Shown here piece after piece: positions 2,304-38,850 of a stretch of DNA of 64,000 nt (positions within the stretch are counted from its first letter, which is position 1; each line of letters opens with the position of its first letter). Source of the stretch: Deferrisomatales bacterium (GTDB lineage: Bacteria; Desulfobacterota; Deferrisomatia; Deferrisomatales; JARGFW01); NCBI GenBank assembly GCA_029211085.1, contig JARGFW010000003.1:15938-79937 (forward strand), read 5' to 3'. A program made the translations under genes and the position numbers. A model generated the notes under the pieces. The model was given only the letters and a program-made list of their open reading frames with translations, was not told the DNA's origin and did not search any database.

Positions 2304-2511
2304 TCAGCGGCCGCGGCTCCGCAATGACACGTCGACGCCGGGAAACGAGCCCCTTCTGTCCAATAGAGCACAGCCGTGCTGACTATTCTGCAGAAACTCG
2401 GCAACCCTCTCCGTTTTGCCTCGATTCCCGGGCCCGCAACCAGGCACGCCTCTTGCTCTACCCTTGCCCGAAGTACCGAACGCCCCCGTTCACCGAAGGG
2501 TACGTGTCACG

Positions 2512-4890
2512 ATGGCCCACACCCTGCGACGTTGGTTCGATGTGTATCAAGGCGAGGCGCGTCTGTTTCTCCTCTCGGCCCTGGTGCTGTTTTTCGTCCG
2601 CAGCTCCGGGGTTCTGTTCGGCAACTACGCGGAGACGGCATTTCTGAAGCGGTTCGGGATCGAGTACCTCCCGATCCTCATCGTGGTGAACTCCCTGTGC
2701 ACCTTCGTGGTGATGGGGTTCTTCGGGAGGCTGATGGCCCGGGTGCCGGCCGGCAACCTGCTCCGGCGCGCCCTCATCGGCTGCGGCGTCGTGGTGGGTA
2801 CCCTGCGGCTGGCGGTCCCGCTGGGACTCGATCTCCTGTATCCGGTGCTGTACGTGCTGCGCACCCAGTTCGACCTGTTGCTCACGTTCCTGTTTTGGAA
2901 CCTGGCCAACGAGCGGTTCTCTACCCGTCAATCCAAGCGCCTGTTTCCCCTGATCACTGCCGGCGGGATCGTGGGGGGGATTCTAGGCAGCTTCGCCACC
3001 CCACTGGTGGCACGCATGACCTCGGTGGACAACTTCATGTGGCTCTATGGGATCCTGGTCCTCACCGGAGCGACGTTCACCCGGAGTCTGGCCCAGGAGG
3101 AAAGACCCCCGTCGCCGCAGCACGCCGAGCCGGCGGAACCGTCGGGGCGTTCCTCCCTGTTCCAGGAGATCCGCAGGGCCACCCCCGTGCTGCGGGAATC
3201 CTCCCTGGCCCGTTCTCTGGTGCTGATGACCCTGCTGCCGAACATCGTGATACCGCTCTTGAACTACCAGTTCAGCTTTGCGGTGGACATGAACTACGGC
3301 TCCGAAGCGGCCATGCTGGGGTTCTACAGCACCTTCCGGGGTGTCCAGTACATTCTCGCCCTGGTGATCAGCCTGTTCGCCGGGCGCTTGTATGCCCGCT
3401 TCGGGATTCCCACGTCCCTGCTGTTCCATCCACTCAACTACCTGTTCGTGTTCGCCGGGTTCCTGTTCCAGTTCGATATCTTCACCGCGGTGTACGCCGG
3501 CATCTCCGTGGGCGTGTTGCGGATGTCCGTGCACAACCCGGCCCGAACCGCTTTGTTCGGGCTCTTCCAGGAGCGGGAACGGGTGCTCCTGCGCGTGTTG
3601 CTCCGGAGCACGGTGGTGCGTGTCGGCCTCCTCTTGGGTTCCCTCCTCGTGCTGGTTTGCCAGTCCGGTTATTTCGCCTGGTGCCGCTCGGCCCTCCACC
3701 CCCAAAACCTCTCCCCGTTCGGGATGTTCTTCGCCGGGCTATGGGTCTGGGTGACGCTGCGACTCCGGCGGAAGTACCCCGCCATCCTGCTCCGGTCGAT
3801 CGGACACGAGCCCCCGGCCGCAGTCGCGGCGGGAGCCCTGGTGAGCCATGGCGTGCGGCTTCCGGCCGACGTTCTCTCCCGGTGCCGAGAACGGGTGGAC
3901 CGCTGCTACCGGAGCCTTTTCGCGGCACGGGATCTGCGGCGGGTTTCTCCCCCGAGCCCGCACCGCGAGCTACTCGCGCGGCACCTGGAGGAAGCGGCAA
4001 AGCAGGACGCGCTGGAGACCCTCTCTGCGGCCGCTCAAGCGGATTCGAGCGGCCAACTGGCGACGGTCCGGCGTGCCCTCGACTCCGGCTCCTCCCGTCG
4101 GCGATCCAACGCCCTGGAAACCCTGGACCACCTCCTCGACCGCTCCCTGGCCCGACCGTTGCTCGCGTTGCTCGATGACCTGGCACCGGGCGACCGGCTG
4201 GCTGCCGGCGCTCGGTACCTGAAGGACCGACGACCGGCGCGATCGTCGGCGGCGGACCTGATCGGCGGGTTCCTGCGCAGCCCGGACCGGGTGACGCAGT
4301 TGCTCGCGCTCCATCTCGCGCAGCACGGCGGAGCACCCTCGACCCATGCGACCGACCTGCTGCGGTTGGCCGACTCGTCCACCTCCCACGTTCGGGATCT
4401 GGCCGCCGCCATGGCTCACGGAACCCATGACAGCGGCGCGGTTTCGAACGGGCCGGCGGTTGTCACCCCAAACCTGGTCGACGCCATCCTGCTGCTGCAC
4501 AGCCTGCCCGCCATGGCCGGCGTGCCCGTGCGGGACCTGGCTGAGTTGGTGTCCTCGGGAGGCTTCGTGGAGGCGGATGCGGGGCGGGAGATCGCCCTGG
4601 ACGGCGCTCCGTTTCAAGGCATCTGTCTGGTGCTCGCGGGTGCCCTGTCGGTCGAGGGTGATGCCGTTGGCGGAGGACTGGAGTCTGGAGGGGCACTGCT
4701 CCTCGGTCCGGGAGATGCGTTCGGACCGGCGCTCCCCAACGACCCGTGCAGCCGGGGCTTGTCGGGGCGGGTGGTGGAAAACATCCGCCTGTTCCTCGTC
4801 CCCAGGGACCGACCGGCCCCGCTGGACGCGATCGCGGCGGCAAGTCGCTTCAGGGCGCCCTGCTCTCCCGCGCCAGCATGGTCTCGATGA
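2512..4890 (+). CDS. TLC/AAA-family (ATP:ADP-antiporter-like) polytopic transporter fused to HEAT-like repeats and a degenerate C-terminal cNMP-binding-like domain (paralogue 1)
   Basis: It lies in ORF 2416..4890, and I place the start at ATG 2512 (MAHTLRRWFDVYQGE). The N-terminal half is collinear with the 15453..18734 protein (FFVRSSGVLFGNYAETAFLKRFGIEYLP / LFWNLANERFSTRQSKRLFPLITAGG). The middle has HEAT-like helical repeats. The C-terminus looks like a beta-barrel but lacks a clean FGE...R(S/T)A phosphate-binding cassette. Confidence 0.7.
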   Translation: MAHTLRRWFDVYQGEARLFLLSALVLFFVRSSGVLFGNYAETAFLKRFGIEYLPILIVVNSLCTFVVMGFFGRLMARVPAGNLLRRALIGCGVVVGTLRLAVPLGLDLLYPVLYVLRTQFDLLLTFLFWNLANERFSTRQSKRLFPLITAGGIVGGILGSFATPLVARMTSVDNFMWLYGILVLTGATFTRSLAQEERPPSPQHAEPAEPSGRSSLFQEIRRATPVLRESSLARSLVLMTLLPNIVIPLLNYQFSFAVDMNYGSEAAMLGFYSTFRGVQYILALVISLFAGRLYARFGIPTSLLFHPLNYLFVFAGFLFQFDIFTAVYAGISVGVLRMSVHNPARTALFGLFQERERVLLRVLLRSTVVRVGLLLGSLLVLVCQSGYFAWCRSALHPQNLSPFGMFFAGLWVWVTLRLRRKYPAILLRSIGHEPPAAVAAGALVSHGVRLPADVLSRCRERVDRCYRSLFAARDLRRVSPPSPHRELLARHLEEAAKQDALETLSAAAQADSSGQLATVRRALDSGSSRRRSNALETLDHLLDRSLARPLLALLDDLAPGDRLAAGARYLKDRRPARSSAADLIGGFLRSPDRVTQLLALHLAQHGGAPSTHATDLLRLADSSTSHVRDLAAAMAHGTHDSGAVSNGPAVVTPNLVDAILLLHSLPAMAGVPVRDLAELVSSGGFVEADAGREIALDGAPFQGICLVLAGALSVEGDAVGGGLESGGALLLGPGDAFGPALPNDPCSRGLSGRVVENIRLFLVPRDRPAPLDAIAAASRFRAPCSPAPAWSR

Positions 4891-5989
4891 CCTCGGCGAT
4901 GTCGTGTCTGCCAGCCTGGCGCAACGGCCCGAGCAGCTCGCGGTAGAAGACGTCGCGGTGGCGGATGTTGATGTCGAAGGCCGAGAGCTTTTCGAGATCC
5001 ACGTCGTCCGCGACGAAAGCCCGGGAGCGCTCCAGCGCCCCCACGGCGGCCAGCCCGGTCATCGTGCGCAGGCACTTCTCGCACTCGCCACAGTTGAGCC
5101 GGTCCTCCACATTGGCCAGACAGACCCTCAAGTTGTGCAGCGCCACCTCCCAGTCGGCAACCAGGCGAATCTTGTCCATCCGCGACAGATGCAGGTCCTT
5201 GTGGAAGATGGGCAGGTCACGGCTGGAGTACTTGGGTTCGAGCAGCGGGTGGGTGCCGCAGGGGACCAGGTGCGCCACCGGGTAGGACGAACCGATGTAC
5301 AGGGTGTCCCACCGCGACGCGAAGGCGTGCCCGCCCGCCGCTAGGACCGCGCCGCAGAACTTGCCCAGCCACAGGGCGCGGTCGTCACACAGGTGGCGCA
5401 CGTTGGTGTACAGGGGCACCAGTCGGGTGCCGGCTGCCTCCATGACCGGGGCCAGCGCCTGCCGAGCGCGCTGGTAGACCGGGTACTTCATGCCCCGGCG
5501 CACCACCCCACCGATCTCGAAACCGTGGATGAACAGGCACTCCCGCACATAGCCGGGGTGGCCCTCGGGATAGTACTGCCGGTTGGTGAGCAACGCGGCA
5601 AAGGAATCGATGCCGCCCGACATCAACAGCGCAGCGCTGCGGTCCCGCCCCGGGAACAGGGTCTCCCCGAGCCTCGGCGCATGGATCTCCAGGGGGCGGT
5701 AGGCATCGCCACCCCAGTGTGCCAGCAGCGCCATCGCGTCTGCCAACCCCTCGGCCAGCTGCGGACACACCGGATCTTCGAGGGCGATTCTTCGCTCTCG
5801 GAAGTGCATGGCGGGCACGAAGCAGCCAACCAGAAAGGGGTGGGCGGTGAGCGAGAGGCTCTCGCCGTACGGCTCCTCCGTCTCGAAGAACACTTCGGCG
5901 GGTTCCTTGCTGCAGTCTTCCCACACCACGTCGCAGCGGATCCGCACCCTGCCCTCGCGGGTGACTTTGTCCAGGTTGCGGATTCTCAT
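4850..5989 (-). CDS. PP-loop ATP pyrophosphatase superfamily protein, QueC-like (predicted carboxylate adenylation/amidation enzyme)
   Basis: It lies in ORF 4850..6154, with the start at ATG 5989 (MRIRNLDKV). That start overlaps the upstream TGA by 4 nt (ATGA). It carries the PP-loop motif SGGIDS and a C-terminal Cys cluster NCGECEKC like the Zn site of QueC. The upstream extension of the ORF is Arg/Gly/Pro-rich and looks non-coding. Confidence 0.7.
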   Translation of the reverse strand: MRIRNLDKVTREGRVRIRCDVVWEDCSKEPAEVFFETEEPYGESLSLTAHPFLVGCFVPAMHFRERRIALEDPVCPQLAEGLADAMALLAHWGGDAYRPLEIHAPRLGETLFPGRDRSAALLMSGGIDSFAALLTNRQYYPEGHPGYVRECLFIHGFEIGGVVRRGMKYPVYQRARQALAPVMEAAGTRLVPLYTNVRHLCDDRALWLGKFCGAVLAAGGHAFASRWDTLYIGSSYPVAHLVPCGTHPLLEPKYSSRDLPIFHKDLHLSRMDKIRLVADWEVALHNLRVCLANVEDRLNCGECEKCLRTMTGLAAVGALERSRAFVADDVDLEKLSAFDINIRHRDVFYRELLGPLRQAGRHDIAEVIETMLARESRAP

Positions 5990-6867
5990 GGGGAGTACTC
6001 CGTTTCCAGGTGCCGCACGATCATTGCCGCCACATCCAGCCCGGTGGCCTGCTCCAGCCCCCGAAACCCGGGTGCATAGTTCACCTCCAGGAGATAGGGG
6101 CTGCCGTCCCGGTCGACGAGCAGGTCCACGCCGGCCAAGTCCAACCCGATGCAATGGGCCGCTCGCTCGGCCAGGCGCCGCAGGTCCGCCGCAACGGGAA
6201 CCCCTCCCCCCCGACCACCGCGGTGGATGTTGGCTCGGAAATCGCCGGGGGCGGCCACGACATCCATGGCGGCGACCGCGGCGCCTCCGAGTACCAGCAC
6301 ACGGATGTCACGACGTCCTTGGATCGGCACGAAGCGTTGCAGCAGGAACCCCTGCTTCGGCTCCAGGTCGCGGTCTACCAGCGCCTCCAGTTCGCGCAGG
6401 GATTCCGCCAGCCAAACCCCGCTTCCCTGCCGTGAGCGGGTCTGCTTGACCACCAGGGGGAACGCGCCGACGCTGGCAGCACAGGCAGCCAGGGTGTCGC
6501 GGTGGTTGCACAGAATCGAATCCGGGACCGGCAAACCCGCCGCGGTGAGACACTGCATCGTGTGAAACTTGTCGCGGGCGATGGCGATGGGCTGCGCCCG
6601 GTTGAGCAGCGCGACGCCCGCCAGCTCCAACTGCCTCACGTAGGCCAGATTCGGGTCGCTGACCAAGGCCCCCTGGCGTGGGATGACGACATCGGGGCGC
6701 GGCCCCTCCGGGTTGGGGCCGAAACCCAGCTGGCCACCGCGCATGAGGGGCCGGAGCGCATACGGATTGATCAACGATGCGTCGTGGCCGCGCTGCTGCG
6801 CGGCCTCCATCAAGCGCTGGTTGGGATGGTAGGCCGCGTCACGGACCGATACGATGCCAATACGCAC
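5986..6867 (-). CDS. RimK-family ATP-grasp ligase (alpha-L-glutamate-ligase-like)
   Basis: This 293-aa protein has a GTG start at 6867. RimK-like blocks are present: ARDKFHTMQ, VVKQTRSRQGSGV, DIRVLVLGG, DFRANIHRGG, AGVDLL...YLLEVN. Confidence 0.85.
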   Translation of the reverse strand: MRIGIVSVRDAAYHPNQRLMEAAQQRGHDASLINPYALRPLMRGGQLGFGPNPEGPRPDVVIPRQGALVSDPNLAYVRQLELAGVALLNRAQPIAIARDKFHTMQCLTAAGLPVPDSILCNHRDTLAACAASVGAFPLVVKQTRSRQGSGVWLAESLRELEALVDRDLEPKQGFLLQRFVPIQGRRDIRVLVLGGAAVAAMDVVAAPGDFRANIHRGGRGGGVPVAADLRRLAERAAHCIGLDLAGVDLLVDRDGSPYLLEVNYAPGFRGLEQATGLDVAAMIVRHLETEYSP

Positions 6868-6891
6868 AGGCGTTGCCTTTCCGAAGGGGGC

Positions 6892-8079
6892 TCAGCGGCT
6901 GGCGATTTCAGCGAACTCCGCGGCCGTCCAGATACCGACCTGCTTGTTCATCTTGGTGCTGAAGAACGAGCCGACCTGCACGGTGTTGTTGCGCCGGGCC
7001 ATGGTCTTGGTGGCCTCGTTGTCTTCGGCGATGATCGAGTAGAACTTGCGGCCCTCGGCCCGCGCGGTCAGTCCCGCGAGCAGCTGCGTGCCGATCCCCA
7101 GCCCCCGGTACTCGGGACGAACCGAGGTATAGCCGCGCTCGAGAAAGCCGCGCAGGTCGAAGCCGGTCTGCTGGCGCACGGTTTCGATGTATTCCTCGCG
7201 GGGGTGCTTCAGGGTGGAATCCGCCACCACCCGCCCGCGCTCCGTCACGTAGCCGATCAGGAACGCGGTCTCCAGATTGCTGCGCACGCGCTCGGTGGCC
7301 ACCGCCCCCCCCGCCGCCACCAGTCGCAGCACCTCGTCGAAGACCCCCGCGGGAACCTCCGCGGGGGGCGCGAACTGGTACTCGAGGGCCGCGCCCAGGG
7401 TGAACAGGGAACCGTCGTCGGCCGCGCGCATGCGGCACAGGGTCTTGACTCCGTACCGGAGCACGGCGCACAGCAGCTCCGCAGGGTCGGCCAGCCGGGT
7501 CCACAGCGGACGACCTTCGAGGGCGGCGGTCTCACCGTAGCGTGCGCGCAAATCGACCCCCCGCAATCCGCCGTCGGGTCGCTGGTGGAAGCGCGCATGG
7601 ACCACCGTGGGCTCGGCGGCGGCCTCGGCGTCCCAGGCCGTGCACACTGCGGGGGGAGACTGCGCGTCGCTGAGCACCACGTTCCAGATCCCATCTTTTG
7701 CACTCTGCCACAGACGCTTGATCTGGTCCCCCGCGGGCGGCTCGTGGACGCGCCAGAAGACCACGCGGACGCGGCGGCCGAACTCGGACAGACCCGGGCG
7801 CCCTACCGACCCATCCAAGGGCAGGGTCATCGCTATGCTTCCGCCCACCTCCGGATGCTCGCGGATGTGCTCCAGGAGGACGTGGGCCGCTGGCTCACGG
7901 ACCGCAACCCCGGGCAACAGGCTTGCCCGAACGCCCAACACAGGTCCGCAATACAACAACAGGTCTTCTCCCCGCGAAAAATCTTGGCACACGGGTTCCT
8001 GGCCAACCGGCCGGTCGCCCGCCCCTTCGGCACTGCGGGGTACGGCGCCCCCGCGACTCCGCTCTTCCGCGTCCGTCAC
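6892..8079 (-). CDS. Two-domain protein: unknown N-terminal domain (about 230 aa) plus C-terminal GNAT acyltransferase
   Basis: It lies in ORF 6892..8130. I place the start at GTG 8079, which overlaps the upstream TGA (GTGA) and has AAGGGAGG 7 nt upstream. The C-terminus has the GNAT acetyl-CoA motif (RPEYRGLGIGTQLLAGL). I recognise no motif in the N-terminal part. Confidence 0.65.
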   Translation of the reverse strand: MTDAEERSRGGAVPRSAEGAGDRPVGQEPVCQDFSRGEDLLLYCGPVLGVRASLLPGVAVREPAAHVLLEHIREHPEVGGSIAMTLPLDGSVGRPGLSEFGRRVRVVFWRVHEPPAGDQIKRLWQSAKDGIWNVVLSDAQSPPAVCTAWDAEAAAEPTVVHARFHQRPDGGLRGVDLRARYGETAALEGRPLWTRLADPAELLCAVLRYGVKTLCRMRAADDGSLFTLGAALEYQFAPPAEVPAGVFDEVLRLVAAGGAVATERVRSNLETAFLIGYVTERGRVVADSTLKHPREEYIETVRQQTGFDLRGFLERGYTSVRPEYRGLGIGTQLLAGLTARAEGRKFYSIIAEDNEATKTMARRNNTVQVGSFFSTKMNKQVGIWTAAEFAEIASR

Positions 8080-8876
8080 GGTGTGCCTCCCTTCTGGTCG
8101 GTGCACCGCAGGTCGTCTGCAAAGCGGCACAAGACCTCGCCCATGGCCATCTTGATTGACGACAGTTTCAGCGCGTCGCAGGCATAGGCATCCGGCTGTT
8201 TATACAGATCCTCGTTGAGTTCCACCTGAATTGCCCACTTGCCTTGCTGACGAAGCAACGGGCCGTAAGTCGCTGTGATGAAGCCACCGGAATACGGGCT
8301 ATTGAGGGAGACGCTGAACCCCTGCGCACGAAACGCCTCCGCGAGGAAAGCCAGAATCTCGCCCGGGCAGCTGGTGGTCCGCCTGGCAGAGGTCGAACCA
8401 TTGGGATCCCCCAGGTTGCCCAGGGTCACATCCTTGCGACGCTGGGATCGGTCTGGAGCGTTGACCGGGCCGATCCCCTCCAAGGAGTGGCAATCGATCA
8501 AGCCGGCGCAAGGCGTCGTGGCGAGCACGTCGCGCAGGCGGGTGTGAAACGGCTGGTAGTAGCGCTCGATCAGCTGCGCTCTCAACGCGGCGGACGGCTC
8601 CCGTCCGGGCTTCCACACCCGGTTGCCCCCGTAATCCGTCTGCGGGATCACCCCCATCGGGCGCTGGTCGTCGATTGCCCGGTTCAGATCGACAACCAAC
8701 CGGCTACACACCGCCGGCACAACGGCCACTACCGGCAGGTCGACATAGATCTCGCCGGTGCACAGGTCCGCCGAGCGGGCCACCTCTTCGTCGCCGACCG
8801 CCAGGCGCTCGACGATCTCCGCGGCGATGGTTGTAGAACAGTGGGGCAACGACAGAACGAACGGCAGCGGGTTCAC
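8076..8876 (-). CDS. N-formylglutamate amidohydrolase (FGase) family hydrolase
   Basis: This 266-aa protein has a GTG start at 8876 that overlaps the upstream TGA (GTGA). FGase-like blocks are present: SLPH, RLVVDLNR, GLIDCHS. Confidence 0.7.
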   Translation of the reverse strand: MNPLPFVLSLPHCSTTIAAEIVERLAVGDEEVARSADLCTGEIYVDLPVVAVVPAVCSRLVVDLNRAIDDQRPMGVIPQTDYGGNRVWKPGREPSAALRAQLIERYYQPFHTRLRDVLATTPCAGLIDCHSLEGIGPVNAPDRSQRRKDVTLGNLGDPNGSTSARRTTSCPGEILAFLAEAFRAQGFSVSLNSPYSGGFITATYGPLLRQQGKWAIQVELNEDLYKQPDAYACDALKLSSIKMAMGEVLCRFADDLRCTDQKGGTP

Positions 8877-9880
8877 TCTTGAGCCCTCGCAAAGCCGCGC
8901 TTCTCGGCCACCTTGAGTTCGATGAAATCGACGATCTTCTCTTCCAGCTTCACTTTGTCCAGGCGATTGATGCGCGGCACGCCGCCGGGACTGAGGCAGT
9001 TGATCTCGATGAGCTTGTCCCCGATGATATCGATGCCCACGAAGTACAGCCCATCGCGCACCAGACGCTCCTTGATCACCTCACAGATATGGCGTTGGGC
9101 CGGCGTCAGTGTGTGCTTCAGCGCCCGGCCCCCCGCGTGGATGTTGGTGCGGAAATCACCCACTGCCGGGACCCGGCGCATGGCGCCCAGCACCTCGCCG
9201 TTGAGCAGCAGGACACGCACGTCTCCCTCACTCAGGCTGGTCTCGAGGTACTCCTGCACCATGATCGGTTCCCGCCGCGCATACTCCCGGGAGGAATGGA
9301 CGTAGAAGTGGATCAGGGAGTTCAGATTGAGCTTGTCCTGCATGCCCACCTTGATGACCCCTTCCCCCCCGAACCGGGAGATGGGCTTGATGATCATGGA
9401 GCCCCCGAACTCCTCGATCACCCTGCGCAGTCGGTTGGGGTCCCTGGACAAGTGGGTTTCCGGAATGATACTGGGAAAGTTCAGGGCGTAGAGCTTGGTG
9501 TGGGCGAGCAGTTGCCCGTGGGTCGAGTTGAGGATGAACACCCGGTCTTCGAGCGGCGACAGAATTTCCAAGGCATGGCGAACGATCGGCGGGTTCTTGC
9601 GCAGGAAGATCGCGTCGATCTCGCTCAAGGGCTCGAAAATTCGCTCCTCGCGCTTCAAGCCCCGGATCAAGGTCCGCCAGTACTGCTTCATCGACAGATC
9701 TTGGGGAGCCGATACATCCCGCATTCGTGCAACAATGCGATTGCCCCGCACATAGATGTCGTGGGGCTCGAAGAAATACACCGAGTGCCGGCGCTGGTTG
9801 CACTCGTACATGATGTGGCTGGTGGTCTCGTGGACTGGAGCGATGGACTCAAGGGGGTCCATCAGGAATGCTATTCTCAT
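8873..9880 (-). CDS. Glutathione-synthetase-like (GshB-type) ATP-grasp ligase
   Basis: This 335-aa protein starts at ATG 9880. It is collinear by eye with E. coli GshB: MDP...; IFLRKNPP; IIKP..RFGGEGV; GDVRVLLLNGE; NIHAGGR; GLYFVGIDIIGDKLIEINCLSP. Its GC content is visibly lower (about 57% in the first 120 nt) than that of its neighbours. Confidence 0.8.
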   Translation of the reverse strand: MRIAFLMDPLESIAPVHETTSHIMYECNQRRHSVYFFEPHDIYVRGNRIVARMRDVSAPQDLSMKQYWRTLIRGLKREERIFEPLSEIDAIFLRKNPPIVRHALEILSPLEDRVFILNSTHGQLLAHTKLYALNFPSIIPETHLSRDPNRLRRVIEEFGGSMIIKPISRFGGEGVIKVGMQDKLNLNSLIHFYVHSSREYARREPIMVQEYLETSLSEGDVRVLLLNGEVLGAMRRVPAVGDFRTNIHAGGRALKHTLTPAQRHICEVIKERLVRDGLYFVGIDIIGDKLIEINCLSPGGVPRINRLDKVKLEEKIVDFIELKVAEKRGFARAQE

Positions 9881-10183
9881 GATTGCACCGGCTTTCTTCT
9901 TCCGTGGCCAGCGAGAACACCGCTAATCATGCGCTAGTTTTTCTTCCTCCACCTGCTGGGTCCAATCGTTTACCATGGTTCTTAGATTCCCTATCTACCA
10001 GGGTGCATCACCTCCGGGAAGAAAAACCCTCCAAATGGTTTCTCTGCCCCCCGTAAAAGCATCCAAAAATTTGTGTTCAAGGGGAAGGATGACCGCTGTC
10101 CTGCCGAAGGGCCGTCCCTTTGCCACGGCCGATCTCACTACTACACTTACTCTAGCGCGCGCCACCTCAGGAGCCACCCCCGG

Positions 10184-11788
10184 ATGAGTCCGTCCACCCT
10201 GCGTCACGCATTGGCCATCGCAGCACTGCTGCTCTTGGCCCCCCCCGTGCAGGCACGGACAAAGACCCCGGCCGATCTGCTGCTGTTGGCTGCGGATCTC
10301 AGCTCGATGATCACCCTGGACCCCGCGGCCGTGGCGGAAAGCCTCACCAGCGGGTTCCTGCGCAACACCTGCGACACGCTGATGGACCTCGACGAAGAGG
10401 ATGCTTCGCGCGTAGTACCGGGGGTCGCCGAGCGGTGGAGCGTTTCGGAGGATCTGAGCACCTACACCTTCACCCTCCGGGACGGGCTGGTGTTCCCTTC
10501 CGGCAATCCGGTCACCGCCCGGGACTTCGCCTGGTCAATGCGCAGAAACGTGGAGCTCAACCTGGCCAGCGCGAAGCGGCTCCGCGACTGGGGGATCGAC
10601 GCCAGCAATATCGACCAGGTGGTGACCGTGGTCGATGATCGCACCCTGCGGTTGACGCCGCCGCGGCGTTACGCCCCCTCGCTGTTCCTGTTCGCCCTCA
10701 CCGACTACCGGGTGGCCCCCGCCCTCGACTCCGTCCTGGTGCAGGAGAAGGAGGTCAGCGGCGACCACGGCAACCGCTGGCTGTCACGCAACACCGCCTG
10801 CTACGGGCCGTTCCGGGTCAAGACCTGGCGCCCCCAGGAGGTGCTGGTACTGGAACGCAATCCGGACTGGTACAAGGACAACCCCATCCGCAAGGTCCTC
10901 GTGCGCCACATCTCCGAACCCGGCTCCCAACGCCTGATGCTGGAGCGCGGCGACATCGACATGGGGGTCAACATCGACCCCGCAGACTACGACGAACTGG
11001 AAAACAACCCCGACACGTACCTGACGAAGACGCCGGGGCTGCGGATGATCTACATGGCCTTCAACACGCTGGACCCGCGGTTTCAGGACCCTCGGGTGAT
11101 CCAGGCCTTCCGCCACATGATCGACTACGACACGCTGAGCAACACCGTGTTGAAGAACGCGGCCGAGGTGCGACAGAGTCCGGTGCCCAGCGCGATGTTC
11201 GGCGCCCTGCCGCGGGACTTCCGGCCCTACGCGTTCGACCTGGAGAAAGCCCGGCAGTTGCTCCGCGATGCAGGGCACGCAGACGGCCTGGTGGTGGAAC
11301 TGATGACCCAGAGTTCCTACCCGTACTACGACATCGCCCAGCACATCCAGGCGAACGCAGCCGCGATCGGCGTGGAGGTCCGTATCGCCTCCACCATCGG
11401 CAAGCACCTCTACACGAGTCTGCGGGCGCGCAAATACGAGATCTCCCTGTCCGGGTACGCGTTCAACTACCCCGACGCCAACAATGTGATGCTCAGCCAC
11501 GGATACAACCCCAGCGGGTCCGACACGGACAACACCGTCTCGGTGGCGTGGCGCTCCTCATGGTTCCCGGAGCCGTGGTTCAACGAGGCCATCCTGGCCG
11601 CCCAGACCGCGGCCGACCCGGACCGGCGCCGGAGCATCTACGAGGATCTGCAGCGCTACCACGTGGAGCACTCACCACTGATCTACCTGTTCGAGCGAAT
11701 CGATGTCCGGGCCCTGAGCAGGTCGGTGCGGAGCGTGAAGTGCAACGCGGCTGGCATATGTTTCTCCTCGGTGGTGAAAGAGCAATGA
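10184..11788 (+). CDS. ABC transporter substrate-binding protein, family 5 (peptide/nickel, DppA/OppA-like)
   Basis: It lies in ORF 10073..11788, starting at ATG 10184, which is preceded by AGGAG. It has a signal peptide (MSPSTLRHALAIAALLLLAPPVQA). Length and composition are typical of family-5 substrate-binding proteins. Confidence 0.85.
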   Translation: MSPSTLRHALAIAALLLLAPPVQARTKTPADLLLLAADLSSMITLDPAAVAESLTSGFLRNTCDTLMDLDEEDASRVVPGVAERWSVSEDLSTYTFTLRDGLVFPSGNPVTARDFAWSMRRNVELNLASAKRLRDWGIDASNIDQVVTVVDDRTLRLTPPRRYAPSLFLFALTDYRVAPALDSVLVQEKEVSGDHGNRWLSRNTACYGPFRVKTWRPQEVLVLERNPDWYKDNPIRKVLVRHISEPGSQRLMLERGDIDMGVNIDPADYDELENNPDTYLTKTPGLRMIYMAFNTLDPRFQDPRVIQAFRHMIDYDTLSNTVLKNAAEVRQSPVPSAMFGALPRDFRPYAFDLEKARQLLRDAGHADGLVVELMTQSSYPYYDIAQHIQANAAAIGVEVRIASTIGKHLYTSLRARKYEISLSGYAFNYPDANNVMLSHGYNPSGSDTDNTVSVAWRSSWFPEPWFNEAILAAQTAADPDRRRSIYEDLQRYHVEHSPLIYLFERIDVRALSRSVRSVKCNAAGICFSSVVKEQ

Positions 11789-12855
11789 ACATGGCACAGA
11801 CCACCCAGCAGGGGACAGACCCGCACCGCGGGGGAGCCACGCAGTGGGGCTCTCGGGCCCGGCGGCTGGCCCAGCTGGTGCTGACCATCGGGCTCACCCT
11901 GCTCGGTCTGCTAGCGGTGACCTTCTTCATCGGCCGGTTGATGCCCATCGACCCGGTGGTCGCCATCATCGGCGAGCAGGCAGACCAGGCGGCGTATCAG
12001 ACGGTGTATCACCAGCTCGGGCTGGACAAGCCGCTGCCGGTGCAGTTCTTCATCTACGCCCGCAGCATCTTCAGCGGCGACTTCGGCTTCTCCCTCACCA
12101 CCGGCAATCCGGTGGCCGAAGACCTTTGGCGGGTCTGGCCCGCGACCATGGAATTGGCCACCCTGGCGCTGGTGCTGGGGGTGCTGGCGGGGGTGCCGCT
12201 GGGGATCATCGCCGCCATCTGCCAGAACTCCGTGTGGGACCACCTGGTCCGGCTGTTCAGCCTGATCGGCCACTCGATCCCGAATTTCTGGCTCGGGCTG
12301 ATGGCCCTGGTGGTGTTCTACGCCAAGCTGGGCTGGATCGGGGGGGCAGGCCGCACCTCGATGCAGTTCATCGACGCGCTGGATCCGGTGACGGGATCGA
12401 TTCTGCTGGACTCGCTGTTGGCCCGCAGGTGGGACATGCTCGCCGACGCCCTGCGACACGTGATCATGCCCGCCCTGATCCTCGCCAGCGGCTCGATGGC
12501 GTTCCTCAGCCGCATGACCCGCAGTTTCATGCTCGAGCAGTTGAACCAGGAGTACATCGTCACCGCCAAGCTGAAGGGCCTGGGCACGGCCGGTCTGGTC
12601 GCCCACGCCATGCGCAACATCGGCGTGCAGTTGGTCACCATCGTGGTGCTTTCCTACGGCGGGCTGCTCGACGGAGCGGTGCTGACCGAGACGGTCTTTG
12701 CCTGGCCCGGCTTCGGCAGGTACATGACCACAGGACTGATGAACGGCGACATGAACGTGACCCTGGCCTGCGTGTTCCTCGTGGGCACGATCTTCATCAC
12801 CATGAATCTGTGCGCAGACGCACTCTACCGCATACTCGACCCGAGGACCCGCTGA
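11785..12855 (+). CDS. ABC transporter permease (DppB/OppB-like)
   Basis: The start at ATG 11785 overlaps the stop of the binding-protein gene (ATGA). Typical DppB blocks are present: RLMPIDPV, MTRSFMLEQLNQEYIVTAKLKGL. Confidence 0.9.
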   Translation: MNMAQTTQQGTDPHRGGATQWGSRARRLAQLVLTIGLTLLGLLAVTFFIGRLMPIDPVVAIIGEQADQAAYQTVYHQLGLDKPLPVQFFIYARSIFSGDFGFSLTTGNPVAEDLWRVWPATMELATLALVLGVLAGVPLGIIAAICQNSVWDHLVRLFSLIGHSIPNFWLGLMALVVFYAKLGWIGGAGRTSMQFIDALDPVTGSILLDSLLARRWDMLADALRHVIMPALILASGSMAFLSRMTRSFMLEQLNQEYIVTAKLKGLGTAGLVAHAMRNIGVQLVTIVVLSYGGLLDGAVLTETVFAWPGFGRYMTTGLMNGDMNVTLACVFLVGTIFITMNLCADALYRILDPRTR

Positions 12856-13757
12856 TGATCGGGGTAAGGCAGTGGCTACGGGCCGCCGAGGCCGCTTCAC
12901 CGACCCAGGCCCTGGCCCAAAGGGTCTACTTCGGCTGGCTCGAGTTCAAGTCGCACCGACTCGCCATGGTGGGGCTCTCGGTGCTCGCCGCACTGGTGCT
13001 GATGGCCGCGTTTGCCCCCTGGATCGCCACCCACGACCCACTGGCGCAGGACCTAATGTTCCGCCTGGCCGGACCCAGCAGGGAACACTGGCTGGGCACC
13101 GACGAACTCGGCCGGGACCTGTTCAGTCGCATCGTCTACGGCTCTCGGACCACCCTGTACATCATGACCGTGGTCGCCTCCATGATCGGCCCCGCCGGCC
13201 TGTTGATCGGCACCGTGGCCGGGTTCCTGGGGGGCCGGGTGGACGCCCTGCTGATGCGCATCACCGACGTGTTTCTCGCCTTCCCCGGGCTGGTCTTGGC
13301 CCTGGCTTTTGTCGCCGTACTCGGCCCCGGCCTGGAAAACGCGTTGATCGCCATCGCGCTGACCGGGTGGCCCGGCATCGCACGCCTGGCCCGGGCGGAA
13401 ACCCTCACCCTGCGCTCCCGGGACTTCATCCACGTGATCAGACTGCAGGGGGGGTCACAGCTACGGATCATCCTGCGCCACATCATCCCCCTGTGCCTGC
13501 CGTCGGTGATCGTGCGCCTTACCCTGGGCATGTCGGGCATCATCCTCACGGCCGCCGGCCTGGGGTTCCTGGGTCTGGGTGCACGGCCCCCCGCGCCCGA
13601 GTGGGGATCCATGCTTTCCACCGGGCGGCGGTTCATGCTCGACCACTGGTGGCTCGCCGCGATACCGGGCACGGCGATCCTGCTGGTGAGCCTCGCCTGC
13701 AACCTGCTTGGCGACGGGCTGCGGGATGTCCTGGACCCAAGGAGCAAGACCGGATGA
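12855..13757 (+). CDS. ABC transporter permease (DppC/OppC-like)
   Basis: The start at ATG 12855 shares one nt with the upstream TGA. It carries the block HWLGTDELGRDLFSRIVYGSR and several transmembrane segments. Confidence 0.9.
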   Translation: MIGVRQWLRAAEAASPTQALAQRVYFGWLEFKSHRLAMVGLSVLAALVLMAAFAPWIATHDPLAQDLMFRLAGPSREHWLGTDELGRDLFSRIVYGSRTTLYIMTVVASMIGPAGLLIGTVAGFLGGRVDALLMRITDVFLAFPGLVLALAFVAVLGPGLENALIAIALTGWPGIARLARAETLTLRSRDFIHVIRLQGGSQLRIILRHIIPLCLPSVIVRLTLGMSGIILTAAGLGFLGLGARPPAPEWGSMLSTGRRFMLDHWWLAAIPGTAILLVSLACNLLGDGLRDVLDPRSKTG

Positions 13758-14623
13758 ACCACACCACCCCCCCCGCCGACCCCATTCTCAAGGTGGACAA
13801 CCTGTCGGTCGGCTACGCCTCCCATCACGGAACGGTGCACGCCGTGCGGGACGTTTCGTTCCAGATGGGTGCGGAAAAGGTGGGCATCGTCGGCGAGTCG
13901 GGTTCGGGCAAGTCCACCCTGGGCAGGGCCCTGCTGCGCATTCTGCCGCGCAGCGCCACCCTGCAGGGGAACATCTGGTTTCACGGCACCGACCTGGCGC
14001 GGCTGACCGAAAAGCAACTGCGCGCCTACCGGGGTGCCCGACTGTCGATGGTCCTGCAGGACCCCAAGTACTCGCTGAATCCGTTGATGCGGGTAGGCGA
14101 ACAGATCGCCGAAGCCTACCGCCTGCATTCCGACGCCAGCCGAGAACAGGCCCGGGAGCGGGCCATGTCGATCCTCGAGGCGGTACAGATCAGGAACCCC
14201 GCTCGGGTCTACCGCTCCTACCCCCACGAGGTCTCCGGCGGCATGGGGCAACGAGTGATGATCGCCATGATGCTGGTCGCGGAGCCCGAGTTGGTGGTGG
14301 CCGACGAGATCACCTCCGCCCTCGACGCGACGGTGAGCATGCAGGTGCTGGCCATCCTCGACGATCTGGTCCGGGAAATGGGCTTGGGCCTGGTGTTCAT
14401 CAGCCACGATCTGGAACTCGTCGCGACGTTCTGCGAGCGCATCCTGGTCATGTACGCCGGGCGCATCGTCGAGGAGTGTCGCGCCGGGGAACTCGACCAG
14501 GCCCGGCACCCGTACACCCGCGGGCTGCTCGGGTCGGTTCCGCGCATCGACCGGCCGAGCCGCCGCCTGGCGGTGCTCGAACGCTGTCCCACCTGGGCCG
14601 AGCCCACACCGGGTGCCCCGTGA
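13754..14623 (+). CDS. ABC transporter ATP-binding protein (DppD/OppD-like)
   Basis: The start at ATG 13754 overlaps the upstream TGA (ATGA). It has Walker A GESGSGKST, the signature VSGGMGQRV, and Walker B LVVADEITSALD. Confidence 0.9.
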   Translation: MNHTTPPADPILKVDNLSVGYASHHGTVHAVRDVSFQMGAEKVGIVGESGSGKSTLGRALLRILPRSATLQGNIWFHGTDLARLTEKQLRAYRGARLSMVLQDPKYSLNPLMRVGEQIAEAYRLHSDASREQARERAMSILEAVQIRNPARVYRSYPHEVSGGMGQRVMIAMMLVAEPELVVADEITSALDATVSMQVLAILDDLVREMGLGLVFISHDLELVATFCERILVMYAGRIVEECRAGELDQARHPYTRGLLGSVPRIDRPSRRLAVLERCPTWAEPTPGAP

Positions 14624-15417
14624 CACCCGTGATCGAGGCAAACGGCCTGAGCGTGGTTTTCGGCAAGGGTGCGGCGGCCCACCGGGTGCTGGACTCGGTG
14701 TCCTTCAGGGTAGGCCGCAACGAGGTGTTCGGCCTGGTCGGGGAGTCCGGCTGCGGCAAGTCTACCCTGCTCAACTGCCTCAGCGGGCTGCAGCGCAACT
14801 GGGAGGGAGAGCTCCGCATCGACGGCGCCCCCCTGGCCCGCAGGCGCAGCAAGGCGTGTTTCCGCCGTACCCAGATGGTCTTCCAGGATCCCTATGACTC
14901 GCTGCACCCGCGACACACCGTCAACTCGATCCTGCGCGAGCCGCTCTCCATCCACCGCCTGGGCGACGTGGACGCGCGCATTCGCGGCGCGCTGAGCGAA
15001 GTCGGGTTGGGACCCGAGTTTCGTTTTCGCTACCCCCATCAGCTCTCCGGCGGCCAACGCCAGCGCGTGGCCATCGCCCGCGCCCTGATCCTGGACCCCG
15101 AGATCCTACTGCTGGACGAGCCCACCTCGGCCCTGGATGTTTCCGTGCAGGCAGAGATCCTCAACCTGCTCCTGGACATTCGGGAGAAGGGCCGCATCAC
15201 CTACGTGCTGGTCAGCCACAACCTGGGCGTGGTGGCCCACATGTGCAACCGGATCGCGGTCCTGCACGGCGGAGTCCTGGTCGAGGAACTGGTCCCCGAC
15301 CAACTGCGGGAGCACACCCCGCAACACCCCTACACCCGTCGACTCCTCGACGCCAACCTCGGCTACGACCGCGGCAAGGCCCACAGGATGCTGCAAGGGG
15401 CGGAGTCCGGTGGGTAG
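14620..15417 (+). CDS. ABC transporter ATP-binding protein (DppF/OppF-like)
   Basis: The start at GTG 14620 overlaps the upstream TGA (GTGA). It has Walker A GESGCGKST, the signature LSGGQRQRVAIARAL, and Walker B LLLDEPTSALD. Confidence 0.9.
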   Translation: MTPVIEANGLSVVFGKGAAAHRVLDSVSFRVGRNEVFGLVGESGCGKSTLLNCLSGLQRNWEGELRIDGAPLARRRSKACFRRTQMVFQDPYDSLHPRHTVNSILREPLSIHRLGDVDARIRGALSEVGLGPEFRFRYPHQLSGGQRQRVAIARALILDPEILLLDEPTSALDVSVQAEILNLLLDIREKGRITYVLVSHNLGVVAHMCNRIAVLHGGVLVEELVPDQLREHTPQHPYTRRLLDANLGYDRGKAHRMLQGAESGG

Positions 15418-15452
15418 ACCACCCGGCGCCGGGAACCCTGGGGAGTCCCCCC

Positions 15453-18400
15453 GTGCGTAAGCGGCTCCTGGGCTTGCTGAACCTTACCGAGAACGAGCTC
15501 GCCCTGTTCCTGTGGACCGCTGCCCTGCTGTTTTTCGTCAGGAGTTCGGGCATCGTCCTCAACAACTTCGCCGAGACGGTGTTCCTGCAGCGCTTCGGCG
15601 TGGAGTTCCTGCCCTACGTCAACATGGGCAACGCGGCGGCCACGTTCCTGTTGATGGGCTGGATGAGCGGGCTCCTCGGGCGCTTCTCCGCCGCACAGCT
15701 GCTCGAGAAAATGTTCTTTTTCTGCGGCATCTCGGTGGTGTTCTTGCGCCTCCTCATTCCCCTCGGCCTGACCTTCGTCTATCCGGTGTTCTTCATCCTC
15801 AAGGCCCAGTACGAGGTCCTGCTTGCCCTGTTGTTCTGGAATCTCGCCAATGACCTGTTCGACACCCGGCAGTCGAAACGCATCTTCCCCCTGGTCACGG
15901 CGGGGGGGGTGGTCGGGCAGATTCTCGGCAGCTTTCTCACGCCAGCGGCCGCGCGACTTCTCTCCCTGGACAACCTCGTCTATTTCTACCTGGCCATCGT
16001 GGTCGCGGGGGCCCTGACGACACTGGCGATGCGGCGGAAGCACCCATCCTCCGCGTTCATCGGGGAGAAGAAAGAGAGCAACGACAAAATTTCCATACTG
16101 GATGAAGTTCGAAACATCATCCCTATAATAAAAGAGTCTCACCTACTGAAGATCCTCATCGCGTTGACATTCATTCCCAACGTTCTCATACCCATACTGA
16201 ATTACCAATTCAATTTCGTTGTCGCGGACCGCTTTGCCTCTGAAAGTGGTATGTTGGATTTCCTGAGCAATTTCAGAGGTTATCTAAACATCGTCAGCCT
16301 ATTGATATTGCTTTTCGTCGGAAAGTTATACGGAAGATTCGGTCTACCGATCGCTTTGATGTTCCACCCAATCAACTACCTTCTTATCTTCGCCTCCCTG
16401 CTGCTCCGCTTCGACATCATCACGGCTTCATACGCGCGCCTGACAGCCAACATCGTCCGCACGACGATCAATGCGCCAGCGCTCGCCGTAGTCACCGGGA
16501 TGTTCCCGGAACGCTACCGGAATCAAGTGCGCCCGTTCCTGCGCGGGACGGTCGTGCGCGTCGGGATCGTGGGCAGCTCGGCCGTCATCCTGGCATCTGC
16601 CCCCTTGTTCCACCCCCGCTACCTGTCGCTGGTGGCCCTGCCATTTTGCCTCACGTGGATTGCCGCCTGTGTGTCCCTGAAGCGCAACTACGCGGCTCTG
16701 CTGCTGGGCATCGTGCGGGATGGCACCCTGGAGCTGAACTCCATGGAGGAGGATCGGGTCGCCGAGTATTTTCAGGACTCCCGGGTAAAAGACACCCTCG
16801 CCCAGAACCTGGCGCAGGCGAGCGAAGATACCAAGGTCTGGCATGCGGACCTGCTGCGCCGGGTGGACGCGGCGCGCGCCAGTATCCTGATCGCGGCAGT
16901 CCTGAAACGGGAGGACTCGGAGCAGACGTGCACCCGGCTCATCCATCTACTGGACTCGGACCCGGACGGCTCGGTGGTGGAGAAGCTCAAGACCCTGGTG
17001 GACCTCTCGCGCACCCGGCAGACCCGCGCGCTGCTCACCGCGTTGCGCCGCTTCGACCCAGCCAGTTCCCGAGAGGTCTGCGCGCACATCGAGACCCTGG
17101 AACCGCCCCTGTCGATCCGCGCGCACACCGTTGCGGATCTGTACGCAACCGATCCGCAGGCCTACGGCCGCACCGTAGACGCCTGGCTCCACTCTTCCCA
17201 GCGCCGGGAGCGGGCCGCCGGGGCCGTGGCTGCCGGCCTGATCGGCGCGGACTACGGCGACACCCTGCGCGGCATGCTCGACCGCGAGCAGGACCCTCGG
17301 GTCACGGCCAAACTTCTCCAGGCACTGCAGCAGATAGGGATGAGCGGGTTGAAACCCCTCGCCGAGCGGTTTCTCGATCACCCGAGCCCGGCGGTGCGCT
17401 TCTTCGCTCTGCAGGGGTACGGAGTGGGGGGAAGGAGCGACTTGCGCAAGGTCGTCTATATGTTCGCCGACCCGTCCAGCAGGGTGGCCGAACGGGCTCG
17501 GCAGAAGGTCAAGAGCGCTCCCAACCTCGACGCCCAGGATCTGTTCGCCCTGCTGGACCTGCCCCACAAGAAAGTGCGCAAAGGAATTCTCGCGCTACTG
17601 AAGTCGATCAACGTGGGCGAGATCGAGGTCATCCGCTTCGGCATGAAACAGGCGCGCACCGCGTATCAACGTCTGGCCGAGGCCAACGCCCTGGACCAGT
17701 TGCCAGATAGCCTGGAGCGCAACCTGCTCCAACGCCACCTGCTGACCCTCAAGGACGAAGCGGCGGAGACCCTGATCCGCGTCCTGCAGAGCCAGAACCG
17801 AGAGGTTGGGATGCGAACCCTGGCCAGGGGGCTGTTCACCGGGGACGAGCGCAGGAAGGCAAACAGCGTGGAGGCGATTTCACAACTCCTCGCCAAGCCG
17901 CTGCGCGAGGTGCTGGTGCCCATCCTGGACAGCACCGACAACGACGCGAAGCTGGCGGCAGGAAGGCGGCACTTCTCCCTGAAATACTACCGCCAAGAGA
18001 CCGACGCGTTGGTGTCGACGCTGTCGGTCAGCGAGGACTGCGTGACCTCCGCCCTCGCCTATTTCCTGTCGATGAAGGAGCACATCCCCATCGACCTGTC
18101 GGCGGCCGTGGATCTGGAACGCTTCGAGTCGGAACCCATCTGCAAGATCGCCCACTTCCTGTATCAGTCGGGCGCCGGCCCGAACACGGCAACGGAGTCC
18201 GCCATGAAGAACGCCCTGGGCCTTCCAGAAAAGATCTTCTTGCTGCAGAACGTATACGTCTTCCAAGGCATGTCCGTCGGCGACCTGGCGGCGGTCGCCG
18301 CAGTCGGCGAGGAGGTAGCGCTGCAGGCCGGACAGCGCGTCTTCGCCGAAGGCGAGTTCGCCGACAAGATGTTCATGGTGGCCACAGGCGCGGTGTCGCT

Positions 18401-18734
18401 GACGAAGCAGGTGGAGAACGGGGAGGCGGTTGAAGTGCGGAACCTCGGGAAAGGCGATCATTTCGGCGAGATCGCCCTATTCAACGACGACCCGCGCCTG
18501 GTCACCGCCACGGCGAGCACCGACACCCACCTACTGGTCTTGCACAAGGACGAACTGACCGAACTGATCCGTGAGTTTCCCCAGATCGGGCTGCACATCT
18601 GCCGCGCGTTCAGCAAGCAACTGCGCCAGGTTCTGAACCTGGTTGCCGAGCGCCACGGGCCCCGGGGGCTCTCCGACCTCATAAGCAAGGCCGGCGCCTT
18701 GTGTGGGTCACCCTCCACGGGCGACTTGAGCTGA
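15453..18734 (+). CDS. TLC/AAA-family transporter fused to HEAT-like repeats and a C-terminal cyclic-nucleotide-binding domain (paralogue 2)
   Basis: It lies in ORF 15243..18734. I place the start at GTG 15453 (VRKRLLGLL), with GGGGAG upstream, only 36 nt after the ABC ATPase gene. The N-terminal half is collinear with paralogue 1. HEAT-like repeats are present ([15 protein letters not shown]..., [14 protein letters not shown]). The C-terminus has a near-canonical cNMP cassette ([23 protein letters not shown]). Confidence 0.75.
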
Positions 18735-18870
18735 CGCGCTGCCGTGGGCAGGGCCCAGGAATGCGGCAGCGCAGGCAGGCCCGGCTCGCTTGCGTCGCTG
18801 CTACCTCGCCGACGTGCCCTGCATCCTAGTGACACAACCGTCCCTTTGTTCCTCCCACGAAGGACCCGCC

Positions 18871-21726
<2,856 letters not shown>

Positions 21727-21788
21727 CTGCCTGTCACCGCCGTCAAACCCGGCGTGTTCCCCGCGCCTGCAATCGAAAGGAAGCCTTA

Positions 21789-23090: not shown

Positions 23091-23120
23091 GCAGACCAAA
23101 GGCAAGGGCAAAGGGCATTC

Positions 23121-37788: not shown

Positions 37789-37797
37789 CCGCGCCCC

Positions 37798-38673: not shown

Positions 38674-38775
38674 GGGGGCACCTCTCGTGGGCGGGCGAGA
38701 CAAAGGCGGACGCGGGAAAGGATGTGCCGAACCGTGGGAGGCTGTCAATTGGGGGGCGCCCATACCCGGCACTTA

Positions 38776-38816: not shown

Positions 38817-38850
38817 ATGCCACGGCCCCCGGCAGTTGCCGGGAGCGGTT

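Follow-up and report, generated by a model that had tools for sequence, protein, structure and literature searches.

A GNAT, RimK-like ligase and PP-loop gene trio in a conserved two-module neighbourhood of Desulfobacterales-type bacteria

Five minus-strand genes in a 64,000-nucleotide (nt) stretch of Deferrisomatales bacterium DNA (contig JARGFW010000003.1; this whole stretch is the window) raise the question of what two ATP-grasp ligases, a hydrolase, an acetyltransferase and a PP-loop enzyme make together, and whether they form a unit. An earlier note, made from the letters of this DNA, read them as a single translationally coupled operon. Comparison with relatives shows that the five genes are members of a wider, uncharacterised system, known chiefly from Desulfobacterales-type bacteria, with an invariant core of GNAT, RimK-like and PP-loop genes. 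Five same-strand open reading frames (ORFs) are present where the note had placed them, and are numbered here in transcription order from 9880 to 4850. Modules A and B are the two conserved gene blocks described below.

8873..9880, minus strand: g1, GshB-like ATP-grasp ligase, 335 amino acids (aa); module A
8076..8876, minus strand: g2, FGase-family metallohydrolase, 266 aa; module A
7831..8075, minus strand: spacer between g2 and g3, 245 nt, formerly read as the 5' end of g3
6892..7830, minus strand: g3, alpha/beta N-terminal domain plus GNAT domain, 312 aa, start ATG 7830; module B, first gene of the trio
5986..6867, minus strand: g4, RimK-family alpha-L-glutamate ligase, 293 aa; module B
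4850..5989, minus strand: g5, PP-loop ATPase with its own N-terminal domain and a C-terminal Cys4 cluster, 379 aa; module B
9881..10072, no strand assigned: divergent intergenic region between g1 and the Opp genes; 0.139 divergence from the relative L085, without codon bias

A scan of species-representative genomes with g5 returned 383 relatives, and taxonomy was taken from the best 80. Nearly all of these 80 come from metagenome-assembled Desulfobacterales/Thermodesulfobacteriota, with the cultured Desulfatitalea alkaliphila in addition, and their identity to the window g5 is at most 56%. Gene neighbourhoods were counted by tblastn thresholds within 8-10 kb flanks at 81 non-redundant loci. 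In 75 of the 81, g5 is immediately preceded by g4 on its own strand, the median gap between the two being 18 nt, and the order g3, g4, g5 is complete in 53 of the 60 loci having at least 3 kb of upstream sequence. This trio (module B) is the invariant core of the system.

Beyond the trio, the 25 loci whose flanks reach 8 kb or more in each direction carry a recurrent set of further genes: an NTT/TLC-HEAT-cNBD transporter (22/25); a secreted FGE-sulfatase-like protein (20/25); a true orthologue of the GshB-like g1 (17/25); an OppA-like binding protein (12/25); and a HAMP-adenylate cyclase (7/25). The FGase gene appeared rare in this count (1/25), which is an artefact of the 10-kb flank, as the gene lies beyond the Opp genes, at the distal end of that operon (GshB-like/Opp). 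When metagenome loci with 8 kb upstream are anchored on the FGase gene itself, the g1 orthologue is found about 6.75 kb upstream in 19 of 27 and the binding protein in 21 of 27. The Opp operon fills the space between g1 and FGase, and the C-terminus of the NTT-HEAT-cNBD protein stands just before g1. FGase is not universal, being absent after OppF at two loci (L022 and L059).

Two layouts emerge. Module A usually reads: an optional FGE-like gene; NTT-HEAT-cNBD; GshB-like; OppABCDF; FGase; and optionally a cyclase or FGE-like gene. Module B reads GNAT, RimK-like, PP-loop and optionally a cyclase, and lies beside module A, usually divergent from it. The window holds both modules in rearranged order: an NTT-HEAT paralogue, the trio, g2, g1, the Opp operon and NTT-HEAT-cNBD. 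FGE-like and cyclase genes were not found in the window. A contiguous g1-g5 quintet is restricted to the close relatives L085 and L086 (93% nucleotide identity to the window). Thus the quintet itself is not co-conserved elsewhere, but its five families recur in one larger, two-module neighbourhood. One likely history is that g1-g2 moved beside module B in the window, which would give the appearance of a five-gene operon.

No small carrier or precursor gene accompanies the system. No small ORF is common to more than 7 of 82 loci, and the g4-g5 gaps are short and hold no conserved ORF. The earlier remark that no LysW-like carrier or precursor gene is seen in the operon therefore extends to its relatives, and a pathway of the LysW type, or one making a ribosomally synthesised and post-translationally modified peptide, was set aside on this ground. 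One divergent locus, L004 (JGI 3300020585), has no RimK-like gene; it carries a Glu_synthase-domain protein, FGase, NTT-HEAT-cNBD, a small GNAT, g5, a GshB-like gene and MscS. Because the GshB-like gene adjoins g5 there, the two ligases may be partly interchangeable.

The junctions of the five genes are of two kinds. GTGA at 8876-8873 joins the g1 stop to the g2 start, and ATGA at 5989-5986 joins the g4 stop to the g5 start, both as first described. A third overlap had been proposed between g2 and g3, with GTGA at 8079/8076 and an AAGGGAGG Shine-Dalgarno sequence. These letters are present, but GTG 8079 is not a conserved g3 start: substitution pattern, codon composition, the gene calls of relatives and in-frame stops in L174 rule it out. 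The reference for substitution rates is L085, whose gene order is identical. Positions 8079-7831 differ from L085 by 0.129 substitutions per site, with counts by codon position of 6, 14 and 12 and no third-position bias. The non-coding region upstream is similar, at 0.139 substitutions per site; the five genes show 0.05-0.077 with a distinct third-position excess. The guanine-plus-cytosine (GC) content of 8079-7831 by codon position (0.81/0.52/0.72) is likewise unlike that of the five genes. Gene callers place the g3 start of three relatives at the internal ATG, giving proteins of 312, 314 and 290 aa, and in L174, an 81%-identical relative, in-frame stops and unrelated sequence precede the ATG homologous to 7830.

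Because this evidence rejects GTG 8079, g3 is taken to run from 7830 to 6892, behind a 245-nt spacer. The 24-nt gap between g3 and g4 is as reported, but it is not the only one. The spacer therefore leaves two tightly coupled blocks, g1-g2 and g3-g4-g5; a single transcript spanning all five genes is possible. Within 7831..8075 a weak terminator-like hairpin lies at 7975-7959, and no other was found. An antisense ORF (7607-8155, plus strand) crosses the spacer, and its counterpart in L085, at 6875-7207, is called as a 110-aa gene; the substitution pattern favours coding on neither strand. A scan of the window against Rfam gave no riboswitch or RNA element, including at 9881-10072. Positions 8001-10000 have the lowest GC within the first 16 kb (0.616, against about 0.65-0.69; the window as a whole is at about 68%), and the second-position GC of g1 is unusually low, at 0.36. 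Protein composition is one possible cause of either feature, a separate origin for g1 another.

Profile searches placed four of the five proteins in the families first assigned to them (g1 GshB-like, g2 FGase, g3 GNAT, g4 RimK), but did not place g5 in QueC. The two motifs singled out in g5 are both there and are invariant across its family: SGGIDS at residues 124-129 and NCGECEKC at residues 299-306. SGGxDS is invariant or near-invariant in both family alignments and follows a predicted beta-strand (118-122). Residues C290, C300, C303 and C306 are invariant, with the spacing C-x9-C-x2-C-x2-C, and form a C-terminal cluster resembling the zinc site of QueC. The PP-loop is shared with QueC and the wider PP-loop ATP pyrophosphatases (NadE, the AsnB C-domain, LarE, Cap9, MnmA). 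Unlike QueC, however, g5 carries an extra N-terminal domain of 110 residues. Membership in QueC was rejected: Pfam QueC matches the C-terminus only, at 18 bits against a cut-off of 22, and hhalign to E. coli QueC fails over the full length, aligning 29 PP-loop columns at a probability of 56%. No Pfam or NCBIfam model reaches its cut-off on g5, and the protein is without a glutaminase (GATase) domain. The AlphaFold2 (AF2) model of g5, with a predicted local distance difference test (pLDDT) of 85, gave weak Foldseek matches to proteins of the nucleotide alpha-hydrolase/PP-loop fold, namely a USP-like protein, LarE, ASNS, Cap9 and MnmA (probability at most 0.98, E at least 0.02, query-normalised TM-score below 0.3). 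Judged by its motifs, the protein called QueC-like should rather be read as a PP-loop ATPase with a QueC-style cysteine cluster.

The family around g5 is large. A profile search against 1.84 billion representatives, clustered at 50% identity, recovered 7704 clusters at E <= 1e-3, of which 1850 also pass E <= 1e-30; full-length proteins of 400-420 aa predominate. With no Pfam or NCBIfam model for its 7704 clusters, the family is a sizeable annotation blind spot, both here and in polysaccharide clusters. Some members are fused to PS_pyruv_trans, sulfotransferase or Fem-type acyltransferase (Acetyltransf_6) domains, and of six distant members whose surroundings were inspected, five belong to Wzx/Wzy or ABC2 polysaccharide clusters, frequently with PS_pyruv_trans adjoining. 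In relatives from other phyla (L087-L089, L091, L092), polysaccharide clusters often hold tandem copies, beside or fused with pyruvyl transferases. A neighbour-joining tree drawn without support values groups the trio-type g5 proteins into a single clade, at whose base the window g5 branches.

For g3, the earlier reading as a GNAT joined to an unrecognised part holds for the GNAT, by both Pfam and fold, and the N-terminal domain still gives no structural match by Foldseek; the claimed start does not hold. Acetyltransf_1 scores 24.5 bits against a Pfam cut-off of 20.7, and the acetyl-CoA-binding motif (R/Q-x-x-G-x-G/A) is present as an invariant RGLGIG. In the AF2 model (pLDDT 89), the C-terminal half matches small-molecule and amino-acid GNATs, namely ArsN/PAT (5jtf and 5wph), PaiA and RimI, with a Foldseek probability of 1.00 and E of about 2e-8; an ArsN/PAT-type match also appears weakly in the curated-model scan. 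Most g3 orthologues are longer, at about 410 or about 650 aa, through extra N-terminal domains that the window g3 lacks. Homologues of g3 also occur in Desulfosarcina widdelii and D. alkanivorans. In L001, L059 and many others this extension is about 350 residues, beginning ...LLVHPPVASPA.... The N-terminal domains of the long forms have no Pfam or PDB sequence match, and tblastn for a remnant of the long N-terminal domain within the spacer gave no signal. B12-binding/radical-SAM genes lie near long-form g3 orthologues in about 15 loci.

The two ligases and the hydrolase belong to known families, each at a distance from the characterised members. The g4 protein shares with the RimK family (RimK, MptN, CofF, LysX; RIMKLA/B) the Rimk_N (46.6 bits) and RimK ATP-grasp (134.6 bits) domains, and passes TIGR00768 at 190 bits against a cut-off of 143, which bears out its description as RimK-like. 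Its nearest structures are those of RimK (7qyr, 5zct, 4iwx; 163-168 bits). It does not reach the RimK equivalog NF007764 (174.5 bits, cut-off 331) and is also under the cut-offs of the MptN, LysX and CofF models. Where these relatives have S6, LysW or cofactor genes as partners, g4 is paired with the GNAT and PP-loop genes.

The g1 protein has the full GshB architecture, with GSH-S_N at 70.9 bits and GSH-S_ATP at 176.6 bits, both above their Pfam cut-offs. Its proposed collinearity with glutathione synthetase is borne out by an alignment to E. coli GshB (1GSA) over residues 2-324, full length, at 113 bits. It nevertheless falls under all three GshB equivalog cut-offs (TIGR01380, 240 against 299; NF003573, 263 against 272; NF009110, 284 against 408). 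The active-site loop, GDFRTNIHAGG, resembles that of g4 (GDFRANIHRGG) rather than that of GshB (GETRGNLAAGG). Orthologues of g1, at about 60% identity, sit in other genomes between NTT-HEAT-cNBD and OppA. The assignment of g2 to the FGase family agrees with a Pfam FGase score of 143 bits (cut-off 28.9), and its orthologues have His, Asp and Glu positions in common. The equivalog model of HutG (N-formylglutamate amidohydrolase), in contrast, gives 86.5 bits against a cut-off of 278.75, and no hut genes lie near g2 in the window, where its neighbours are Opp, NTT-HEAT and ligase genes. None of the five N-termini, read by eye, resembles a signal peptide. PADLOC returned no anti-phage defence match for the five proteins, and a defence role was dropped on this basis.

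The remaining components of the system in the window are membrane proteins and an importer:

2416..4890, plus strand: NTT/TLC-like MFS transporter with a HEAT-like region and a degenerate C-terminus; likely start ATG 2512; convergent with g5
10073..15417, plus strand: Opp/Dpp/Nik-type ABC importer (Pfam SBP_bac_5, BPD_transp_1, OppC_N, ABC_tran)
10073-11788, plus strand: Opp substrate-binding protein (SBP)
11785-12855 and 12855-13757, plus strand: Opp permeases
13754-14623 and 14620-15417, plus strand: Opp ATPases
15243..18734 (maximal ORF), plus strand: NTT/TLC-HEAT-cNBD transporter; likely start GTG 15453

The 15243-18734 protein has TLC, HEAT_2 and cNMP_binding domains, all present by Pfam with weak TLC and HEAT scores, and so has the NTT-HEAT-cNBD architecture. 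The 2416-4890 protein matches MFS_1 and TLC weakly and is 39% identical to it over 556 residues. This paralogous pair brackets the whole system; the cNBD is recognisable in the second only, with a degenerate remnant in the first. The Opp genes overlap one another by 1-4 nt (11785/11788, 12855, 13754/13757, 14620/14623), a coupling at least as tight as that of g1-g5.

The NTT-HEAT(-cNBD) fusion architecture has been described, with no function or conserved partner genes reported (Major et al. 2017, PMC5381601). Control of NTT-HEAT-cNBD transporters by cAMP from an adenylate cyclase has been suggested (PMC5381601). Both flanking membrane proteins share the architecture, and a HAMP-cyclase is a frequent neighbour here. 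What the present loci add to that account (PMC5381601) is a link from the transporters to the GshB-like ligase, the Opp operon, FGase and the trio.

The closest known chemistry is that of N-acetylglutaminylglutamine amide (NAGGN), which is made by an acetyltransferase, an ATP-grasp dipeptide ligase and a PP-loop amidating enzyme (PMC8070244). That pathway (a GNAT/ATP-grasp fusion, Ngg; an amidotransferase, AsnO; an M42 hydrolase; the TIGR03103-type trio) comprises the same kinds of chemistry (acetylation of an amino group, peptide-bond formation by ATP-grasp, PP-loop-type amidation of a carboxylate, and a metallohydrolase alongside) and leads to a small non-ribosomal peptide amide (PMC8070244). 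The two systems are not orthologous: g4 scores 47 bits against a TIGR03103 cut-off of 569, and g5 matches no NCBIfam model. They also differ in that the GNAT and the ligase are separate proteins here, that g5 is without a glutamine amidotransferase domain, and that the hydrolase is of the FGase family instead of M42. The present system further includes another ligase, an Opp importer and a pair of NTT-HEAT transporters. The NAGGN-like product suggested earlier thus remains reasonable as a functional analogy, but not as orthology to Ngg/AsnO. Mammals offer a further pairing of this type, in which the GNAT NAT8L and the RimK-like RIMKLA/B make N-acetylaspartylglutamate. Literature searches found no description of the present gene set. 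Each enzyme is of a known superfamily; neither the curated models nor the literature found cover the gene set, the family of g5, the architecture of g3 or the NTT-HEAT-cNBD link.

The explanation tentatively favoured, by analogy, is that this system is a non-orthologous counterpart of the NAGGN pathway, making a small N-acetyl, glutamate-containing peptide amide with dedicated transport and recycling; it may well be wrong. If so, module B would act in the cytoplasm in three steps: acetylation by g3 of the alpha-amino group of an acidic amino acid, with acetyl-CoA as donor; conversion by g4 of a carboxylate of that amino acid into an acyl phosphate, followed by addition of L-glutamate; and adenylation by g5 of a remaining carboxylate, with ammonia displacing AMP. 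The ArsN/PAT enzymes, which are the nearest structural matches of g3, acetylate glutamate analogues, and this counts in favour of the first step. A small-molecule product is the most economical choice because the five N-termini are not signal-peptide-like and no carrier or precursor gene is conserved. Module A (NTT/TLC-HEAT(-cNBD), g1, the Opp-type importer and g2) would extend, move, re-import and hydrolyse this peptide or one akin to it, with cyclic nucleotides exerting part of the control. Transport and recycling are what the content of this module points to: beside a further ligase and a hydrolase, it holds an importer that depends on an SBP, and MFS-type NTT-HEAT proteins bearing a cyclic-nucleotide sensor. 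The product may be a compatible solute, an exported chelator or signal, or part of peptide salvage. Weak hints of solute handling come from L003 and L004, where the neighbours of the system include an MscS channel, an SNF transporter, an Asp-Al_Ex transporter and a protein with a Glu_synthase domain. A more specific version, which is rather doubtful, is a cyclic-nucleotide-controlled system in which the trio builds an amidated N-acetyl peptide, NTT-HEAT-cNBD exports or exchanges it, Opp re-imports it, and the GshB-like and FGase proteins rebuild or cleave it.

Several points weigh against this favoured explanation. Substrates and products are predictions for every orthologue, and the roles proposed for g1 and g2 are guesses. 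Amidation is deduced from a motif, since no Foldseek match of g5 reaches E <= 1e-3. The nearest g5 relatives outside the clade (about 40-45% identity) occur in polysaccharide clusters, fused to pyruvyl-, sulfo- and Fem-type transferases, and because of this context the ancestral substrate of the family was probably a glycan carboxylate rather than a peptide. A purely cytoplasmic solute needs neither a binding-protein-dependent peptide importer nor a secreted FGE/PvdO-like protein. Finally, the g2-g3 spacer leaves the single-unit, stoichiometric expression that had been proposed not established.

Other explanations distribute the same components differently. With small-molecule chemistry as in the favoured explanation and a different role for the product, the system might run a secreted-metabolite cycle of metallophore or signal logic: NTT-HEAT would export a peptide-like product, a periplasmic FGE/PvdO-like protein would mature it, an Opp/Nik-type importer would return it, and FGase would cleave it in the cytoplasm. 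Such a cycle covers every conserved component, from the exporter-like membrane protein through the FGE-like protein and the SBP importer to the cytoplasmic hydrolase. The SBP scores against the NikA and CntA models are about equal to those against Opp models, and the FGE-like protein scores a sub-threshold 114 bits against PvdO. The NikA, CntA and PvdO matches are all far under their cut-offs, however, no outer-membrane receptor was seen, and the FGE-like gene is absent from the window. The position of the window system between a multicopper oxidase and a CopA-type ATPase would also fit a metallophore, but the association with copper genes is not conserved (CopZ at five loci; multicopper oxidase and CopA at none). 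A cycle of this kind is unlikely. Uptake and salvage, modelled on murein-peptide recycling, is improbable. Here a peptide or a gamma-glutamyl compound would enter through Opp and be remodelled or recycled by FGase and the ligases, and the trio would detoxify or cap intermediates. Most FGase-anchored loci do have the GshB-like and FGase genes built into the Opp operon (g1 in 19/27, the SBP in 21/27). Yet a pair of ATP-grasp ligases, a PP-loop enzyme that consumes ATP and an acetyltransferase make up biosynthetic equipment, costly in energy for catabolism, and the trio is conserved even at loci where the Opp operon is not seen.

The polysaccharide setting of distant g5 relatives (five of six, with PS_pyruv_trans, glycosyltransferases and Wzy or ABC2), together with the fusions of g5-family proteins to PS_pyruv_trans, sulfotransferase and Acetyltransf_6, suggests instead tailoring of a glycan or glycoconjugate. 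On this account g5 would amidate or activate a sugar-borne carboxylate (a uronic acid or pyruvyl ketal), and g4 and g3 would add and cap an amino-acid substituent. The trio-type g5 proteins are, however, a separate clade, and no glycosyltransferase, flippase or polymerase gene occurs in three trio-type gene tables or in the widely shared clusters of 82 loci, so that glycan tailoring is as improbable as salvage. Modification of a protein tail is more improbable again: g4 would glutamylate a protein C-terminus as RimK does that of ribosomal protein S6, and the GNAT and PP-loop proteins would modify it further. The proximity of g4 to genuine RimK structures (163-168 bits) and the acidic ends of some g3 orthologues (...WMIED or ...WMIEE) would fit this. 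Against it stand the g4 score under the RimK equivalog cut-off (174.5 against 331), the lack of a conserved small carrier or target gene, and tails that are not conserved as acidic on neighbouring proteins; the window g3 itself ends ...EIASR. Glycan tailoring and protein-tail modification are both possible and less well supported. Very improbable is a glutathione or glutathione-amide thiol, raised in the earlier note, in which g1 would be a glutathione synthetase and g5 would amidate the glycine carboxylate. The full GshB architecture of g1 and its collinearity with E. coli GshB speak for it. The idea nonetheless finds no specific support: g1 is under all three GshB cut-offs, its active-site loop is RimK-like (GDFRTNIHAGG, not GETRGNLAAGG), the gene tables of the neighbourhoods that were read list no glutamate-cysteine ligase (GshA-like), and the invariant partners of g5 are the GNAT and the alpha-glutamate ligase, not g1.

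If the chemistry that we infer is true, sulfate reducers of the Desulfobacterales type, abundant members of marine and saline sediment communities, would make an undescribed peptide-amide metabolite by a route analogous, not orthologous, to that of NAGGN. The conserved link gives the NTT-HEAT(-cNBD) transporters defined, testable partner genes. Should the cyclic-nucleotide-controlled version be true, it would provide a first functional handle on NTT-HEAT transporters, which occur also in Chlamydia, cyanobacteria and oomycetes, and on a PP-loop family of several thousand clusters otherwise decorating polysaccharides.

Copper genes flank the system in the window, with a multicopper oxidase at 39-2303 and a CopA-type P-type ATPase (HMA, YHS and TRASH domains) at 18790-21726. 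A copper link through these flanking genes was rejected: multicopper oxidase and CopA stand beside the system at 0 loci elsewhere, and a CopZ-like ORF does so in five Desulfobacula loci. Two ORFs farther on, at 36130-40626 and 21786-23111 (1498 and 441 aa), lack any Pfam match and show an unusually high first-position GC of 0.87-0.88; they could encode repetitive or low-complexity proteins or not be genes. At 43144-45606, an 820-aa protein carries a C-terminal ethylbenzene-dehydrogenase-like (EB_dh) haem-binding domain.

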